Below are positions 18,489 to 49,370 of a stretch of DNA of 64,000 nt, piece by piece. Source of the DNA: Planctomycetota bacterium (GTDB lineage: Bacteria > Planctomycetota > UBA8108 > UBA1146); contig JABHOG010000047.1 in assembly GCA_018694835.1 (NCBI GenBank), forward strand, positions 34,149 to 98,148, in the 5' to 3' direction. How positions within the stretch are numbered: position 1 is the first letter of the stretch; every line of letters starts with the position of its first letter. The position numbers and the translations under genes were made by a program. The notes beneath the pieces are model-generated. The model was not told the DNA's origin. It did no database searches and saw only the letters and a list, made by a program, of their open reading frames with translations.

Positions 18489-18500
18489 GCAAATTCAAAA

Positions 18501-18611
18501 CTGGGCAACGACCTACTCTCGCGGTTTAACCCACTACCATCGGCGTAGAGAACTTAACTACCGTGTTCGGAATGGGAACGGGTGTGACCCCTCCACTATG
18601 GTCACCCAGAA
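18501..18611 (-). rRNA. rrf: 5S ribosomal RNA
   Basis: The minus-strand sequence ...CCCGTTCCCATTCCGAACACGGTAGTTAAG...GAGAGTAGGTCGTTGCCCAG matches conserved 5S loop and helix motifs. The terminal helix pairs CTGGGTGAC with GTTGCCCAG. Ends are approximate (+/- 5 nt). Confidence 0.85.
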
Positions 18612-18786
18612 ATTCTACTCGTGAAGTTGTCGGCTCCGTAAAAACGAATCCGCAACAACACGTAGCGTGATTTTAAATTGGTGGTTGGCCTCAAATATGA
18701 TTGACATGATTCGATATGACTCTGCTCGAGCGTACATTCTCACTCTCTGAATCGAGTAGATGCCCGTGCTCGTGCAAAAGAGAAAT

Positions 18787-21746
<2,960 letters not shown>

Positions 21747-21953
21747 ACTATTTCTCGTTTGCACCGCATTCCCATTACACCACACCCAGATGAAGCCGGG
21801 CCATGACGCAATCGAACGGCGCGCACGGGTCTCCTGTGATCCGGAGATTGCTTATGCGCTCTCGAGTTTTGTCAAATCAAATTAAAATTGCAGAGCATGT
21901 CGCTCATATTTCATTATTGACCAACCACCGAATTTTCAAAGATCGATCACGAA

Positions 21954-22026
21954 TGGAGATGAGGGGGATCGAACCCCTAACCTCTGCCTTGCAAAGGCAG
22001 CGCTCTCCCGATTGAGCTACATCCCC
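21954..22026 (-). tRNA. tRNA-Ala (anticodon TGC) in 16S-23S spacer
   Basis: GGGGATGTAGCTCAATCGGGAGAGCGCTGCCTTTGCAAGGCAGAGGTTAGGGGTTCGATCCCCCTCATCTCCA. The G3:U70 alanine identity pair is present. No CCA encoded. Confidence 0.9.
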
Positions 22027-22099
22027 TCACTAGCAGGTTACAAATCACGTCATGAGAGGTTCTGCCAGGCAGTTCCTCGTCACAAAGGGGTCGAATGAA

Positions 22100-22173
22100 T
22101 GGGCTTAGGTGGATTCGAACCACCGACCTCATCCTTATCAGGGATGCGCTCTAACCAGCTGAGCTATAAGCCC
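22100..22173 (-). tRNA. tRNA-Ile (anticodon GAT) in 16S-23S spacer
   Basis: GGGCTTATAGCTCAGCTGGTTAGAGCGCATCCCTGATAAGGATGAGGTCGGTGGTTCGAATCCACCTAAGCCCA. No CCA encoded. Confidence 0.9.
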
Positions 22174-22303
22174 CTGGTTTCACACGACAGACGTCCTGAG
22201 TGGACCCGTGAGTTGTAACCGGATCTAAAATTGGGCCCGCAACTGAAAGAAAGTCCCCAAGCGTTCCACTAGATGGTCACCCATCGCAGTGGTCCAAGTT
22301 ATC

Positions 22304-23850
<1,547 letters not shown>

Positions 23851-43340: not shown

Positions 43341-44240
43341 TCAATCGTTGAAATCGATCGGAGGCAGGTTCAGACCACGAACAATATCCCACTCCTGGTC
43401 CTCGGCCGCCTCGATGCCATCAAACTTGATCGTCGATAACAAATTTCGCCCTTCCTCCGATTGCCCGAGACCAATCAACGCTTCTGCAATTCGTTGCCTT
43501 GTCTTGGCATCGACACTGGGATGGATGGCGAAAGCATGGGGAGTGTACTTTCTTGTGCGGTAAATGGGTATCAGCTGGGACGACACCTGCGGGTCGACAT
43601 TATTGAAGGTGCGAATGATACCACCACCTGCGACATACAACCCCTGGGCAACGCTCCGGTAGACCGAGTCATGGGAAGAGACATATTCCGACTGGAACTC
43701 GATGGGAACTTTCCGAGCCTTCAGTTCCTTGGTGGATAGCAGGGTCGCCGCAAACGCATCCGGTGCGGGGAATGCCAACGTCTTACCAGCCAGGTCATTC
43801 AGATCCATGCTTTCATTATCCTTGTGCACCACCAGGATGCCCTGGATCTTCTTGCCCTTCTGCTTGGCTACTGCGATGAAACCCGGATCCTCATGAAACT
43901 GGGTGTAGTGAAACGGATTCATGTAGGCAATCTTGTAACTTCCATCTTTACAGCGCTTCTCGAACTCAGGAATATCCTTGGCGGTCTGAAATACCAGTTT
44001 CACTCCGGCATCTTCACCCACCAATTTCATGATGGGCATCCACAGTTTTGCGAGTTTGGATGCGGATTGCTGGGGAACGATTCCAAATGTGAGGGTTTCA
44101 CCCTGTTTCGCCGGATTTTGCGCCGATTCAGTCGCGGTGGAGGGCGCTGGGACCGGTTTCTCCGAAGAGCAACCGCATAGAAGCAGCGCTCCGAAGAGTA
44201 ATCCTCCGAGCCGCTGAACATAATCACTGGAACTGTTCAT
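43341..44240 (-). CDS. Periplasmic substrate-binding lipoprotein, PhnD/SsuA-like (phosphonate-binding fold)
   Basis: Lipobox LLLCGCSS. TFGIVPQQSASKLAKLWMPIM is typical of the Phosphonate-bd family. It sits immediately upstream of the hybrid kinase on the same strand, so it is probably a sensor partner. ATG at 44240. Confidence 0.7.
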   Translation of the reverse strand: MNSSSDYVQRLGGLLFGALLLCGCSSEKPVPAPSTATESAQNPAKQGETLTFGIVPQQSASKLAKLWMPIMKLVGEDAGVKLVFQTAKDIPEFEKRCKDGSYKIAYMNPFHYTQFHEDPGFIAVAKQKGKKIQGILVVHKDNESMDLNDLAGKTLAFPAPDAFAATLLSTKELKARKVPIEFQSEYVSSHDSVYRSVAQGLYVAGGGIIRTFNNVDPQVSSQLIPIYRTRKYTPHAFAIHPSVDAKTRQRIAEALIGLGQSEEGRNLLSTIKFDGIEAAEDQEWDIVRGLNLPPIDFND

Positions 44241-44509
44241 CCTTATTTCCTCACCATTGAGGATCAAGTTTATACCGCAACCGTGCGTCTTCCTACCAAA
44301 CGGGTCAAGGAAGTGGCTCCAGATCGGGGGGGCACCTACCCTCCACCAGATCCTGCAGTTCGACCTCAAGTGACGCAACCGAGAGTGGTGGCAAGAGCCT
44401 CGACAGGACCATCTCCGGCCCTCCACGGGTTATAGGAAGATGGCCAGCAGTGGATTCATCTCCGACCCATCACTGCAGACCAGATCTGCGTCACCTCTGA
44501 CTCCCAACT

Positions 44510-44738
44510 ATGAGCACCAGGTCCGTGCTAAAACTGCAGCGCCCTGGTTCCTTCCTATCGATGTACACCGCTCGTTACTCCTCCAGCCCCGAGATCTTTC
44601 AGGCAATCCTCGACCAGGGCGCTGACCCCCTCCCCAGGTGCAAGGGATGGCAAGAAGGCGATCGACCATGCCAAGAAGAACAAGATGCTGGTGGGAACAA
44701 AGGCCTACTGGAACCTCCACGACAAGTCGTTGGAGTGA
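44510..44738 (+). pseudogene. Frameshifted remnant of an ankyrin-repeat gene 3' end
   Basis: One frame gives GSFLSMYTARYSSSPEIFQAILDQGADP. After a C-run (gaccccctcccc) the +1 frame gives RDGKKAIDHAKKNKMLVGTKAYWNLHDKSLE*. Together these parallel the C-terminus of the intact ankyrin gene (GSTLLMYAAQNSWTPEVVQLLIDRGAD...EGKKAVQYAFQNLRIDGKWTFRNL*). Confidence 0.35.
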
Positions 44739-44836
44739 GCTGAGTTCCTTTCGCCTCCTCGTTGTCCTTCAGAGTGACTCCGAATAAAATCGATTCCAGA
44801 CCCTTAGGCCGAGGCACTTCACGAAAGGATCTCGCC

Positions 44837-45217
44837 ATGAAAATTACGCTACTGATGATGTCATTCCTGATCCTGGTCAGCCTGAGTGTCGGGTGCCAGG
44901 CCTTGAAGATGGACTATGGGGAGCCGGCGGCGCAGTTTCTGGAAAAGGATGTGGCTGCACTAGGACAGAAATATCTGGGCAAAAAAATCACCATCAAAGG
45001 GACCGTGATCGATGTCAGCAACCCGCAAGCCGGATGGATCCATCTTGGAAACGGGATCCGTTGCGATTTCAGCCGTTTACCCGCGATGGCACAGAGCAAG
45101 AAGCCCGGTGACATCTGTTTTATCGACGGCATTCTAAAAGAATGTGAGGAAGGGAATATCCTGCTCGAATCGGCAATGCTGCGGGATCCCACCGCGCCCT
45201 TCTCACCGGAGCGATAG
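44837..45217 (+). CDS. Small hypothetical lipoprotein (126 aa)
   Basis: MKITLLMMSFLILVSLSVGC (lipobox). RBS AAAGGA 8 nt upstream. Confidence 0.55.
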   Translation: MKITLLMMSFLILVSLSVGCQALKMDYGEPAAQFLEKDVAALGQKYLGKKITIKGTVIDVSNPQAGWIHLGNGIRCDFSRLPAMAQSKKPGDICFIDGILKECEEGNILLESAMLRDPTAPFSPER

Positions 45218-45232
45218 AACTGCAGACGCGAC

Positions 45233-45316
45233 TCAGGCGGTCGCGGCCAGTGCGGGGACTTGCCCGACCAGTTGGTTCCACTCCGTCTCATCGAGACCGC
45301 TCGCGATCCACTGCAT
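45233..45316 (-). pseudogene. 28-codon remnant of a hemerythrin-like gene 3' end
   Basis: Encodes MQWIASGLDETEWNQLVGQVPALAATA*. Over 81 bp it is about 80% identical to the 3' end of the intact hemerythrin-like gene at 46700-46780 (SQWIASGLGESEWNQLVGSVPALATTA*). Homology ends exactly at the cagtgg junction. Confidence 0.5.
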
Positions 45317-45415
45317 TCTCCCCCATCATTCAATGCAAAAAAAAGGTGGAGGCAATGTGCAGATCTTGGCGTAGGATCTGTTCAGAGAGGTTCGCCGTGC
45401 CTCTCGTGCCTTGAA

Positions 45416-46561
45416 ATGATGTCCATGTCTCGAAATCCGTTCTTCTTCCTGGCTCTCCTCATTCCAACATTTCTTCTGGGTCTCTGGGTCGGGAAACTCC
45501 CTCCTGTCGATGATCCATCCCCAGGGTCTCCTCCGCTGCTGTCTATTGAGGGTCAGGACTCCTCGCAGGCATCAGCCCTCATCACCGCGCCAATCTTGCC
45601 CCCTACACTCGATGCCCAATTGCATGCAGCATTGGGGCGGATGGGCACGTCCCCTGAGGATCTTCAGAAACTCCTCGATTCGGGTGCAGATGTTGATTCC
45701 GTAATAGATGGATGCCCTGTGCTGATCTCTGCGATCGACTCACAGAGTCCTGGAATTCTACTGTTCCTTCTGGAGCAGGGTGCCGAGCTTGAAGCCCGTG
45801 ATCAGTACGGGAATGCACCTCTGTCGATTGCAGCTTCCAGTTACCGGGAAGGTGCAACAGAAGAGGTCAGGATTCTCCTCGACGCAGGTGCTCAGATCGA
45901 AGCGCAAGATCACCTGGGAAATACCGCCCTGATGTCCGCGATGTTCCATTCCTCCGGCATCGAAACCGTCCACCTGTTGCTGGAGAAAGGCGCAAATCTC
46001 GAAGCGCGAAACAACAAAGGTTGGACACCATTGATGTGCGCAACGGCAAGTCTGCATCATTCTGATCTTACAAAATTGAAGTACCTCCTGGACAGTGGAG
46101 CCCAGATGGAAGTGGTCGGTCATGCGGGTGAAACGCCACTGATGCTGGCGGCTCAGGATGTGAATATCGAGGGGTTCGAATATCTGCTGGAAAAAGGCGC
46201 CGATCCTGAAGTTCGCTGCTCCAGAGGTTCCACACTCCTCATGTATGCGGCCCAAAATTCGTGGACGCCGGAAGTGGTTCAACTCCTCATAGACCGAGGA
46301 GCCGATCTTGACGCAACGAATGACCAGGGCTGGACTGCTCTCATGTTCGCAGCAAATACCGATTCACATGAATCAGGAACTGCGTGGCGCAATCAAATTA
46401 CTCCAGACATCATCGTACAGTTGCTGCTCGATGCGGAAGCCGACCCAAAAATCGTCAATAACGAGGGGAAAAAGGCGGTGCAATACGCATTTCAGAATCT
46501 ACGAATCGATGGCAAATGGACCTTCAGGAACTTGTACGATGTCTCAGATTGGAGTCCATAG
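45416..46561 (+). CDS. Ankyrin-repeat protein with N-terminal TM/signal segment
   Basis: At least 8 ankyrin repeats (G.TPLM.AA....E.V..LL..GA). N-terminal hydrophobic FFFLALLIPTFLLGLWV. ATG at 45416. Confidence 0.8.
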   Translation: MMSMSRNPFFFLALLIPTFLLGLWVGKLPPVDDPSPGSPPLLSIEGQDSSQASALITAPILPPTLDAQLHAALGRMGTSPEDLQKLLDSGADVDSVIDGCPVLISAIDSQSPGILLFLLEQGAELEARDQYGNAPLSIAASSYREGATEEVRILLDAGAQIEAQDHLGNTALMSAMFHSSGIETVHLLLEKGANLEARNNKGWTPLMCATASLHHSDLTKLKYLLDSGAQMEVVGHAGETPLMLAAQDVNIEGFEYLLEKGADPEVRCSRGSTLLMYAAQNSWTPEVVQLLIDRGADLDATNDQGWTALMFAANTDSHESGTAWRNQITPDIIVQLLLDAEADPKIVNNEGKKAVQYAFQNLRIDGKWTFRNLYDVSDWSP

Positions 46562-46626
46562 CCTCTCACTGAAAATACAGGTGTCGGCGGTTCGCTCCGC
46601 CCCTGGCCACATTTCAAAATACATCA

Positions 46627-46664
46627 CCCCGCCGGGTCTCAGGACCCTGCGGGGTTTTTCTTTT
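46627..46664. terminator. Bidirectional intrinsic terminator between the convergent ankyrin and hemerythrin genes
   Basis: CCCCGCCGGGTC-TCAG-GACCCTGCGGGG followed by TTTTTCTTTT on the plus strand. An A-rich tract on the other side serves the minus strand. Confidence 0.6.
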
Positions 46665-46699
46665 GATCGGTCGTGACCATCTCTGGAAGATGTGGTTGC

Positions 46700-47353
46700 C
46701 TAGGCGGTGGTGGCGAGGGCGGGCACTGACCCGACCAGTTGGTTCCACTCCGACTCCCCGAGACCGGAAGCGATCCACTGGCTGAGTATCGGCAGGAACT
46801 CCGGGGGAACTCCAGCGATCATGTTCTGGGCCACGCAGACACGATCCGCGGCATCGATGTGGGTGAACCACCACGGCATCATCTCCTGCATGAACTCGGG
46901 CGAGCAGAACTCCATGATCCTGCCGTCGAGCGCCCAGATCTCGGCCGCCTCGAAGTGCTTCATCATCGCCGGCATGATCTGCTGCTCCTCTCCATCGAGA
47001 TGAGTCAGCAGCAGTTGCTGGAGAGCAGCCAGGTCGCTCTGGATGTCGGTCGAGTTGCCGCCCGATAGAGTGGCCACAAGGGCTTCGATTTGACGGTGCT
47101 GGTCGACGCTGGCACCGGTCGAGCCGGGAGCGCGTTGCTCCAGAGGAGGGAAGAAGAGCGTGTCTTCCAGTTCCGAGTGCTTCTCGAGGATGCGAGCAAA
47201 GCGCGGGAAGTCGCTGGCGAACAGTTCGTCTCCGCCGGCGATGATCCGCGCCAGATCCCGGCGCAGGGCACGGTGGACATAGACGAAGTTATCCGCAACG
47301 GCAGCGTACTTTTCCGGGTCTACCATCGCTGGATCATCGGCAGCTTCGCTCAT
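46700..47353 (-). CDS. Hemerythrin-like (HHE cation-binding) domain protein
   Basis: His/Glu-rich helical pairs (HRALRRDL...HSELEDTLFFP...HLDGEE...MKHFEAAE) fit the hemerythrin four-helix metal site. ATG at 47353 after GAGGAG. Last gene of the heme oxygenase operon. Confidence 0.65.
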   Translation of the reverse strand: MSEAADDPAMVDPEKYAAVADNFVYVHRALRRDLARIIAGGDELFASDFPRFARILEKHSELEDTLFFPPLEQRAPGSTGASVDQHRQIEALVATLSGGNSTDIQSDLAALQQLLLTHLDGEEQQIMPAMMKHFEAAEIWALDGRIMEFCSPEFMQEMMPWWFTHIDAADRVCVAQNMIAGVPPEFLPILSQWIASGLGESEWNQLVGSVPALATTA

Positions 47354-47364
47354 GGTATTTCTCC

Positions 47365-48555
47365 TCAAAGACTCGACATCAGCGTCTTCTTGTCCCAGTA
47401 GGAACGAATGCTGGAGATCAATCCATCGGGATTGACGGTGAAGACAGAGACCCCCTCGAAGGTCAGTTCCTTGTCCTTGGTGCGCAACTTTGCCACACCG
47501 GTCCACCGGACAGCGGCCTCGTTCCCCGCCACGAACATGTCGTCCTCGGTCAGTGCCATCTTCTCGAAGAAGCCTGAGAGCGCCTTGAAGTAGTTGGTCG
47601 ACTTGTCGCGGACCAGCAACGGCGGTGTGCCGACCGGATCCCAGCTCAAGGCGTCTTCACTGAAGAGTTCGAGCAACTCGTCGACCTGCATGTTGCGCAG
47701 GCACGAGAAATATCCGCCGACGATCTTTGCGATCTGCTCCTTGCTCAACTTCTCGGGGGGCGCTGATTTCGGCGCTTCGGGAGGGTTGTCGCCGAGGTAC
47801 TGCTCCTTGAGAGCTTCAATCTCTGCATCGTCGGCGGGGGGAGCACAGTGTGAAGGCGCGAACTCCGCGACATACTCGCGAAGATGCTCGGGGAGTTGCT
47901 CGTAGGAGTCGATACGTGCGGCAGTGGTCTGCATGAAGCCGTCCCCCATGCCTGCGAAGGCCGGCAGCGTACCGTAGCGGTTCATCACCATCACATCGGC
48001 CACCCCGGGAGCGGTCGAGCCGTTGTAAGCCTCGTTGAACCAGACCTTGCCGATCGGGGTCTCGACCTCGCCGTAGAGGGTCCAGTAGAAGAAGGTGGTG
48101 TCGCCGGAGCGCTGTGCGAAGACCTTGTCGTTACTGACCTTTGCCAGACCGTAGTGGCCGTTCTGATGGGGTCCGCTGAGGCCCTCGGTATGGATCACGA
48201 TGTGGCGATCCTTCAGTTCGAACAGGGCCTCGATGTAGGGATACTCGCGGATGACGTGGCTACCATCTTCATTCTGCAAGATCTCGCCAGTGTCTGGATC
48301 ACGATAGATCACCAGGGTCCGACACACCGCCTTCGCCTGGTTCCCTTCCAACATCACCAGTCGGTTACTCACCAGCGCCTCGACGCCGGCGATGATTTCC
48401 CCACCCGGCTGGCGATAGAGTTTCCCGACGCTGTGGTAAAAAATCGGCTCGCCGTCACCTACATCGAAGGAGATGAACTCCTTGAAGGTCTCAGGGTCGA
48501 AGCCGTGGTCCGCATCATCCGCAGCGGTCTCGCCGCCCATCCTCACGATGTCCAT
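47365..48555 (-). CDS. Hypothetical two-domain protein: N-terminal unknown domain (about 270 aa) + C-terminal NTF2/SnoaL-like domain
   Basis: The C-terminal 120 aa (IVGGYFSCLRNMQVDELLELFSEDALSWDP...AGNEAAVRWTGVAKLRTKDKELTFEGVSVFTVNPDGLISSIRSYWD) have the SnoaL/ketosteroid-isomerase-like pattern. ATG at 48555 after AGGAGA. Confidence 0.6.
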   Translation of the reverse strand: MDIVRMGGETAADDADHGFDPETFKEFISFDVGDGEPIFYHSVGKLYRQPGGEIIAGVEALVSNRLVMLEGNQAKAVCRTLVIYRDPDTGEILQNEDGSHVIREYPYIEALFELKDRHIVIHTEGLSGPHQNGHYGLAKVSNDKVFAQRSGDTTFFYWTLYGEVETPIGKVWFNEAYNGSTAPGVADVMVMNRYGTLPAFAGMGDGFMQTTAARIDSYEQLPEHLREYVAEFAPSHCAPPADDAEIEALKEQYLGDNPPEAPKSAPPEKLSKEQIAKIVGGYFSCLRNMQVDELLELFSEDALSWDPVGTPPLLVRDKSTNYFKALSGFFEKMALTEDDMFVAGNEAAVRWTGVAKLRTKDKELTFEGVSVFTVNPDGLISSIRSYWDKKTLMSSL

Positions 48556-48578
48556 CTGGTATTCTCCTGGTCTGAAGC

Positions 48579-49370
48579 CTAGGCACCCTTTCGCCTATTA
48601 GAACGCATGGGGAGGAAGTTCGCGAGGGTGCGAATCCAGCTCCCCTCCAGCTCCTCGAACAGGCCCTGGTTGAGGGCGAATACCTGCTTGGCCTCGTCGA
48701 TGATTTGCTGGCTACGCTCATCCGTGAGCGGCAACTGGTTGAGGCGATTACGGTATTCATTCTTGAAGATCCTGGCCTTCTCGATCTCATCGAAATCGAA
48801 GAAGCGCAGGCCGTCACGACCCTCCAGGCCGAGTGAACGACGAGCGATCTTGGAGATCACCTGTCCTCCGGAGAGATCTCCGAGGTAACGCGTGTAACTG
48901 TGAGCCACCAGCAGTCCCGGATCGTTCTCTCCCAGCCAATGGATGCGGTCGATGTACTCCTTACGAGCAGAAGTCATACGCAACTGATTCTTCCAGTCCT
49001 CGCCGTAGAGGAACTCGAGGTCACGTTCGAGGACCGCCTTGCGGCTGAGTTCGGGGAAGTGGATCTGGCTGACCAGTGGATTGTCCTTGTGGCGCTCGAG
49101 TTCCTCCTCCAGCGCATCGTAGACCAGGTACATCCCGGCTTGCATGTTGGCGAAGCTCTCCATATCCATCACGCCCCTCAGGATCCCCTTGACGAAGTTG
49201 GTAGATTCGACGAAGCGGTGAGCCTGGGCAGTCTCGGTCCGGAGACGTTGAGCGAAGGTGATCTCTTCCTTGTCGCTGGCGACAGCATCGGCGCGCAAGT
49301 TCTTCGGCTGATCTGGCTTCTGGTCGGAAATCGTCTCTCGGTTGATCTCGTCTTGCTTGAGGTCTGTCAT
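48579..49370 (-). CDS. Heme oxygenase (HO-1/HmuO family)
   Basis: Canonical HO signature [29 protein letters not shown] (compare human HO-1 [27 protein letters not shown]). The proximal-helix region [12 protein letters not shown] contains the heme-ligand His. Confidence 0.85.
   Translation of the reverse strand: [263 protein letters not shown]

Follow-up and report, generated by a model that had tools for sequence, protein, structure and literature searches.

The window analysed here is a 64,000-nucleotide stretch of contig JABHOG010000047.1, from an uncultured marine planctomycete, and the subject of this report is the interval within it that runs from a PhnD-type binding protein gene (43341-44240, minus strand; Pfam PF12974) to an intact hemerythrin-domain gene (46700-47353, minus strand; Pfam PF01814, E=8.5e-12). 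Two gene fragments, one the 3' end of an ankyrin-repeat gene and the other the 3' end of a hemerythrin gene, lie in this interval together with two intact genes. The first intact gene (44837-45217, plus strand) encodes a 126-aa secreted protein, probably a lipoprotein, with a signal peptide and Cys20. The second, ankB (45416-46561, plus strand; Pfam Ank_2, E=1.5e-55), encodes a 381-aa ankyrin-repeat protein with an N-terminal hydrophobic segment. Pfam recognized no family in the lipoprotein or in the ankyrin fragment. ankB and the hemerythrin gene converge on a GC-rich hairpin (46627-46654, -27.6 kcal/mol) followed by a U-tract; by folding, this terminator (46627-46664) is usable on both strands, with z=-4.1 on the plus strand and z=-3.35 on the minus strand.

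A sequence-only reading of this DNA had described the convergent pair and its bidirectional terminator just as they are found. It had also seen the same junction a second time, in degraded form, immediately upstream, with the lipoprotein gene as an insertion that widened the spacing, and had concluded that a segment was duplicated. A rearrangement is indeed recorded here, and it explains the short spurious open reading frames (ORFs) of the region. The ancestry of the two fragments and of the gene between them, on the other hand, turns out differently once related loci are brought into the comparison.

The ankyrin fragment, the lipoprotein gene and their relatives

Related loci, denoted by L numbers and written in the orientation of the window, were gathered by exact-protein look-ups and by a scan of species-representative genomes; the hemerythrin homologues derive from marine Planctomycetota metagenome-assembled genomes (MAGs). 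Two of them, L015 and L029, have the backbone of the window on both sides: w39999, a histidine kinase gene and PhnD on the minus strand, then ankA and the lipoprotein gene on the plus strand, converging on hemerythrin, SnoaL and heme oxygenase genes on the minus strand. Both have an intact ankA, no ankB and no second hemerythrin end, and L029 has an additional 134-aa ORF between hemerythrin and the lipoprotein gene. In the loci that we call T1 (L004, L005, L031, L037), rpsT, tRNA-Phe, ankA, orf93 and the lipoprotein gene, all on the plus strand, converge on hemerythrin; the full order is seen in L004 and L031, L005 and L037 being short contigs that cover the lipoprotein-hemerythrin end. T2 (L001) has ankA, the lipoprotein gene and KatG on the plus strand, followed by orf136 and hemerythrin on the minus strand. 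In T3 (L006-L013), KatG, where the contig reaches that far upstream, is followed by ankB, which converges on hemerythrin with a truncated tRNA-Phe and a terminator between them. T3 contigs are at most 3.3 kb long. L006-L011 show the ankB/hemerythrin junction and end inside or just past hemerythrin; L012 and L013 share the ankB upstream breakpoint and end before hemerythrin. More distant loci (L016, L019, L020, L022-L024) have rpsT and tRNA-Phe on the plus strand, a terminator and hemerythrin on the minus strand, with no cassette or one small cassette between.

Intact ankA, which encodes 527 aa in L015, lies in L015, L029, L001 and L004 at exactly the position of the ankyrin fragment. The window retains the PhnD-ankA intergenic and upstream region (44241-44559) and, beyond it, the last ankyrin repeat and C-terminal tail of the gene (44560-44738, plus strand). 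Window 44160-44550 aligns at 81% identity to L015 12176-11781 and L029 3524-3129, the left homology ends in CCTATCG, and the junction at 44559/44560 corresponds to a clean deletion of L015 11780..10331, or 1,450 bp, with a 1-nt overlap. The deletion begins some 45 nt before the ankA start codon and ends inside the last repeat. Relative to the intact orthologues, the remnant has lost its start and most of its coding sequence, and an extra G at about 44644-44646 disrupts its frame by a +1 shift. With its 5' truncation, missing start codon and frameshift, it is like any ordinary deletion/frameshift pseudogene, and there is nothing unusual about it. The frameshifted ankyrin C-terminal fragment of the sequence-only reading is thus real, although homology is confined to 44560-44738, and the ATG at 44510, where that reading had let it begin, falls in former upstream sequence.

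At the protein level, L001 ankA matches the fragment through its C-terminus with 76% identity over 59 aa, and L004 ankA with 61%; in DNA, the fragment is 88% identical to ankA of L001 and 84% identical to ankA of L015 and L029. Against ankB, the protein identity is 37% over 54 aa, and at the DNA level the fragment and ankB gave no alignment. On these comparisons the fragment is the orthologous remnant of ankA, a gene different from ankB, and the view that it is a degraded mirror copy of the downstream pair has to be given up. The ankA deletion is independent of the hemerythrin fragment. A 20-kb Logan contig from SRR12939211 (L041), 99.99% identical to the window, has as its position 1 window 44560, the deletion junction itself, and the deletion may be polymorphic in that sample.

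The lipoprotein gene, for its part, is ancestral at its position and not an insertion, because the order ankA-lipoprotein-hemerythrin is found in relatives and because window 44820-45313 is collinear with L004 7074-6574 (85.7% identity) through the lipoprotein gene, a 15-16-nt spacer and the hemerythrin 3' end, the collinearity stopping at 45313. The gene is always downstream of ankA, and in L015, L004, L005 and L037 it converges on hemerythrin; the convergence in relatives spans about 16 bp. Its product is 96% identical to that of L001, 92% to those of L015 and L029, and 80% to that of L004. Relative to these loci, the DNA that has been inserted is the ankB segment, from 45314 to about 46800.

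Two hemerythrin 3' ends and the joint between them

The displaced hemerythrin 3' end (45233-45313, minus strand) consists of the last 26 codons and the stop codon of an allele that we call alpha, and the intact gene ends in an allele that we call beta (46700-46780, minus strand). Positions 45235-45313 and 46702-46780 form an ungapped 79-nt direct repeat with identity at 66 of 79 positions (84%), whereas the best other match in the window reaches 40/79 and the maximum over 200 shuffled queries is 43/79; an exact 23-mer, for which the chance expectation is 0, is common to both copies. The hemerythrin fragment of the sequence-only reading therefore stands, its identity lying far above chance and above the 60% that had been named as a lower limit. 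As an ORF (45233-45316, minus strand; 27 codons) it reads MQWIASGLDETEWNQLVGQVPALAATA, and the intact gene ends in SQWIASGLGESEWNQLVGSVPALATTA. The displaced end keeps the ancestral 15-nt distance to the stop codon of the lipoprotein gene. At the other side the homology breaks off abruptly at ccactg (45308-45313; cagtgg on the coding strand), the sharp breakpoint that had been noted before. RNA folding of the fragment region as a possible terminator of the lipoprotein gene yielded no significant structure (z=-0.4).

Over 81 nt, stop codon included, the two copies differ at 15 sites, and at 15/15 of these the state of the fragment is found in intact genes of other genomes; private substitutions number zero in the fragment and two in the intact copy. 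The fragment (45235-45313) matches the intact hemerythrin ends of L006-L011 at 76/79 and those of L015 and L003 at 72/79, and together with its flank it is 93% identical to L015 at full coverage. The intact end (46702-46780) matches L016 at 74/79, L019 at 72/79 and L015 at 61/79. Duplication in situ followed by divergence would make the two copies sisters of each other, with private changes in each, and this pattern is not observed. Since foreign alleles match each copy better than the other copy does, the two are most likely alleles from different lineages that were brought together and not a duplication that diverged. Among the 37 loci searched, a second hemerythrin 3' copy was found in none outside the lineage of the window.

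Over most of its length the window hemerythrin gene resembles those of L008, L025 and L001 (93-97%), and in a sliding-window comparison its last ~100 nt are L016/L019-like. Since hybrid beta/alpha 3' ends are present in L029 and L037, crossovers within this 3' stretch do occur in nature. L037, a candidate for a donor-type hemerythrin, proved on inspection to belong to T1: its lipoprotein gene converges on hemerythrin, and the hemerythrin 3' end is a hybrid one.

Where the fragment breaks off, the ankB upstream region begins (45314-45415, plus strand). It presumably includes the ankB promoter and 5' UTR; a sigma-70 promoter scan upstream of ankB found no match, with a model that may not apply to Planctomycetota. 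The region is 91-93% identical to L006-L013 and not present in L015, L029, L004 or L001, and it arrived together with ankB. Homology of the T3 contigs to the window starts at 45307-45313, and the alignment at this point is instructive: T3 contigs read CACCTCGACTG followed by CATTCTCCCCC, the hemerythrin gene reads GCGATCCACTG followed by GCTGAG, and the window reads GCGATCCACTG followed by CATTCTCCCCC. This novel joint between hemerythrin coding sequence and ankB upstream DNA shares ACTG only (45310-45313), a 4-nt microhomology, with agreement at 6/7 positions over the heptamer TCCACTG/TCGACTG (TCSACTG; 45307-45313).

True orthologues of ankB are few (P0110, 92% aa identity; P0111, 82%; P0112, 55%) and all lie on contigs of at most 3.3 kb, and in the contigs of P0110 and P0111 the gene stands between KatG and hemerythrin. 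A metagenome scan for further relatives of ankB returned only one irrelevant 35% match. At window 45718, within ankB, the window has T and all four near-identical assemblies discussed below (L038-L041) have C, a private single-nucleotide polymorphism of the source of the window.

Downstream, 6 nt past the ankB stop codon, begins a remnant of tRNA-Phe(GAA) that extends from the anticodon loop to the 3' end (46567-46609, plus strand) and has a 1-nt T-loop deletion and one stem substitution; it is recognized solely from its alignment to intact tRNA-Phe genes and was reported by neither ARAGORN nor Rfam. Intact tRNA-Phe lies between rpsT and hemerythrin in L004, L016, L019, L020, L022-L024 and L031, and the truncation seen in the window is also present in T3 contigs L006 and L012. 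L019 and L016 match the segment 46562-46701 with 91-93% identity; taken together with the hemerythrin 3' end of the window, the segment is 91-94% identical to L016/L019 and 77% identical to L015. The hairpin with its U-tract is the ancestral terminator on which tRNA-Phe and hemerythrin converged.

A proposed history and its competitors

The locus lies downstream of hemerythrin, at a variable spot, and is probably the scar of two independent events, namely the deletion in ankA and the joining of two locus types. In the first event, the 1,450-bp deletion removed the ankA start and about 470 codons, leaving the last repeat to acquire its +1 frameshift later. In the second, an arrangement in which the lipoprotein gene converges on hemerythrin (as in L015 and L004) would have been joined with one in which ankB, truncated tRNA-Phe and a terminator face hemerythrin (as in L006-L013), through two crossovers, the one homologous and located in hemerythrin or past it, the other illegitimate and located at ACTG (45310-45313). 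The outcome would be some 1.4-1.5 kb of DNA, comprising the ankB upstream region, ankB, the tRNA remnant, the terminator and a new hemerythrin 3' end, set within the 3' end of the old hemerythrin gene, whose last 26 codons would have been displaced and left beside the lipoprotein gene as a dead fragment. The joint on the recipient side falls 79 nt within the region of homology, so that the old end would have been kept beside the new one, mimicking a duplication. Two directions can be envisaged: an L015-like recipient may have gained ankB, or a T3-like recipient may have had its KatG side replaced by a piece bearing the ankA remnant, the lipoprotein gene and the displaced hemerythrin end. The fragments are without function of their own.

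Homology-facilitated illegitimate recombination (HFIR), which has been described in Streptococcus pneumoniae, Acinetobacter baylyi, Pseudomonas stutzeri and E. coli, leaves, opposite an end that lies in homology, a junction with 3-10 bp of microhomology (PMC3240628). The exchanged DNA in the window is alike in that one of its ends lies in continuous homology, the hemerythrin gene, and the other is a 4-nt microhomology joint, and a heterologous size of ~1.4 kb is typical. On the homologous flank, T1/L015-type loci align through hemerythrin and SnoaL, and T3-type loci through hemerythrin; on the other flank, the joint is novel and has ACTG microhomology and no longer homology. Both parental arrangements are at hand, the lipoprotein/hemerythrin junction in L015, L029, L004 and L005 and the ankB/hemerythrin junction in L006-L011. 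The accompanying deletion depends on the direction: with a T3-like recipient, the KatG-side DNA is lost, and with an L015-like recipient, at most ~50 nt are replaced. HFIR is further expected to depend on RecA and on the uptake of linear DNA. Two features set the present case apart. It is read from the comparative genomics of uncultured bacteria and not seen in experiment, and its joint lies inside the homologous region, leaving a 79-nt direct repeat of two alleles in place of the usual accompanying deletion. The junctions of both parents, the joint with its microhomology, the pattern of alleles and the deletion in ankA are seen in the sequences; that a single event of the HFIR type made the joint is our inference, as is the route of DNA transfer.

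Orphan 3' pieces that arise by C-terminal or effector displacement have been modeled for type VI secretion system (T6SS)/Rhs loci in Vibrio cholerae, with HFIR proposed as a putative mechanism (PMC5361080). In the effector-immunity arrays of Rhs/contact-dependent inhibition (CDI) and T6SS loci, as in the window, an incoming module with its own 3' end replaces the resident end, and the old end survives as an orphan. The window, however, is without toxin-immunity logic or a successive orphan array; its displaced piece is 26 codons of hemerythrin, and its cargo is an ankyrin-repeat gene on the opposite strand.

Several observations weigh against the history proposed here. The T3 contigs are too short to give the wider context or the direction of transfer, and the closest T3 relatives, with ankB 96% identical in DNA, are the very ones (L012 and L013) that stop short of hemerythrin. 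A beta-type 3' end in an ankB-bearing donor is therefore hypothetical, and the T3 locus L008 is of alpha type. As a rule, the insertion in classical HFIR is paired with the loss of a comparable length of recipient DNA, whereas one of the two directions envisaged here would entail hardly any loss. The position of the right-hand crossover can be given only approximately, and to our knowledge neither natural transformation nor any other route of DNA uptake is known for this organism. Lastly, the break of tRNA-Phe in the anticodon loop could be the trace of an integrase that acted on the ankB cassette at some earlier time.

This last point is the root of the alternative that survives best, albeit as an unlikely one, in which site-specific integration, by a tyrosine integrase at tRNA-Phe or by another recombinase, placed the ankB segment here as a cassette or islet, with the 79-nt repeat as an att-like duplication. 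The tRNA-Phe gene next to ankB is cut off at the anticodon loop, which is a classical sublocation of integrase crossover; the tRNA-Phe/hemerythrin interval is variable; and the same ankB cassette occurs in two contexts. Yet no integrase, transposase or terminal inverted repeats are found within ±6 kb, and the 64-kb window has neither an intact tRNA-Phe nor a second piece of one, the partial copy at 46567-46609 being the only one. The left joints, moreover, differ by context (L006 position 1342 vs 1491), and the repeat is 84% and not ~100% identical and is coding sequence of two allele classes. Integration of this kind may account for an earlier stage in the evolution of the ankB cassette.

Poorer still are the prospects of a segmental or tandem duplication, within this genome, of a unit of convergent ankyrin and hemerythrin genes, of which the upstream copy decayed and received the lipoprotein gene. 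The 79-nt direct repeat and the equal gene order on both sides (ankyrin on the plus strand, hemerythrin on the minus strand) are what had suggested it, and the ankyrin fragment and ankB do have a common type of C-terminal motif. But the divergence is unequal, at 84% in DNA for the hemerythrin ends against 37% in protein for the ankyrins, and two such ages do not come from a single duplication. The ankyrin fragment, as set out above, is orthologous to the ankA of relatives; L015, L029, L004 and L001 carry the lipoprotein gene without a second copy; and the hemerythrin copies, of which the fragment lacks private changes, are not each other's closest relatives. Duplication fails three defining tests and is largely refuted.

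It is scarcely credible that the fragments are functional small genes, encoding a 27-aa peptide (45233-45316, minus strand) or a 77-aa product (44510-44743, plus strand). The hemerythrin fragment does have an in-frame ATG made at the joint, no internal stop and no private substitutions. Neither ORF, however, occurs in any relative outside the near-clonal population described below, and in the synteny of relatives neither fragment is a conserved short gene, full-length genes being present instead. The ATG comes from ankB-side sequence, GAATGCAGT, which in T3 contigs L006, L007 and L010 opens an unrelated 29-aa ORF, and the 77-aa ORF runs across the frameshift into nonsense.

Least credible of all is an assembly chimera of two co-occurring strains, for although many MAG contigs break inside hemerythrin, as strain heterogeneity would have it, the joint shares 4 nt, too short for a k-mer join, and the identical structure is present in four assemblies from different samples and pipelines. 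These four contigs (L038-L041; two ENA SPAdes assemblies, NCBI MAG GCA_018668455.1 and the Logan contig) carry the whole arrangement and are 99.86-99.99% identical to the window across both junctions. They were reached through the exact lipoprotein sequence, which is found in 116 blocks of the assembly collection; the junction 22-mer, GCGATCCACTGCATTCTCCCCC, had no exact match among the JGI metagenome contigs scanned. The arrangement is fixed in a widespread, nearly clonal population; being near-identical (99.9%), L038-L041 are uninformative on selection on the fragments. Five MAG contigs from four assemblies (L025, L028, L029, L031, L034) start or end within hemerythrin, and MAG PAIH01 (NAT2) has three contigs with hemerythrin pieces. 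Such contig breaks suggest strain-level heterogeneity, in the form of assembly-graph forks, at the variable spot.

The hemerythrin interval, its surroundings and its meaning

Within ±6 kb of the scar, the genes are those of a cupin, an alcohol dehydrogenase, a histidine kinase, PhnD, the lipoprotein, ankB, hemerythrin, SnoaL (SnoaL_2; 47365-48555, minus strand), a heme oxygenase and an FG-GAP protein. Heme oxygenase, the 396-aa SnoaL_2 protein and hemerythrin form a trio (window 46700-49370, minus strand) the order of which is kept from these Planctomycetota (L001-L034) to Myxococcota MAGs (L032, L033), where the proteins are 54-68% identical; the SnoaL_2 protein also has a weak, sub-threshold match to DUF1838. 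The trio looks like a candidate conserved operon related to heme, iron or O2. On the other side of the scar, PhnD (43341-44240) is 71% identical in DNA to its counterparts in L015 and L029, and its neighbours are closer (histidine kinase, 84-85%; w39999, 92-93%; lipoprotein gene, 93%), a local drop that suggests a further allele replacement beside the scar. A complete rRNA operon (16S, tRNA-Ile, tRNA-Ala, 23S, 5S) lies 21 kb upstream, at window 18500-23849 on the minus strand, and would permit taxonomic placement.

Across relatives, the interval between hemerythrin and tRNA-Phe/rpsT or PhnD has at least 8 different contents. A second example of cassette replacement at this same spot is provided by L001 and L006, which are 99.1% identical through KatG and 137 nt beyond and then diverge fully (L001 6204 / L006 1342), L001 continuing into orf136 and L006 into the ankB cassette, before they rejoin at the hemerythrin stop codon with 89.5% identity. 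Other cassettes seen in the interval are the 134-aa membrane ORF of L029 (442-846), with related sequence in L016 (9685-10272); a 239-aa ORF with a dockerin/EF-hand-like DGDVNGD motif, at 8121-8840 in L020 and 9784-10503 in L022 and L024; and orf136 itself (L001 5555-5965, L021 3308-3679).

Flexible genomic islands and integration hot spots between core genes are well known, tRNA-associated islets among them. The present interval is like such islets and hot spots of horizontal gene transfer in that a fixed span, from tRNA-Phe/rpsT or PhnD to hemerythrin, holds different small cassettes in each lineage, and in that a tRNA gene borders it, with a truncated tRNA copy in the window. It is unlike them in that the window copy has no integrase, att repeats or intact tRNA, and in that its cassettes are single genes of 0.4-2.6 kb.

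For annotation, the consequence is that the ORFs at 44440-44743 and 45233-45316 are pseudogene debris, that the lipoprotein gene and ankB are real genes, and that 46567-46609 should be marked as a tRNA-Phe remnant. More generally, diverged copies that look like a duplication may turn out to be alleles of different lineages. The scar itself is of an ordinary kind in genome evolution, neither a new mechanism nor a new kind of element. With both parental configurations at hand, however, the event is documented unusually completely, and it offers a clean natural example, in a lineage without genetic tools, of the product and both parental configurations of homologous-plus-illegitimate recombination.

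A broader proposal can be put forward only tentatively, as a possibility rather less likely to hold than to fail: the hemerythrin/tRNA-Phe interval might be a population-level site of cassette exchange in uncultured marine Planctomycetota, at which single-gene cassettes (those of secreted ankyrins, KatG, the lipoprotein and small membrane proteins) are shuffled by homology-anchored illegitimate recombination and not by the enzymes of mobile elements. If so, homologous recombination between the two alleles of the retained 79-nt repeat could excise the ankB cassette, the hybrid hemerythrin 3' ends of L029 and L037 would be footprints of such crossovers, and the locus would join a small number of natural examples of an HFIR-like event for which the product has been recovered together with both parents.

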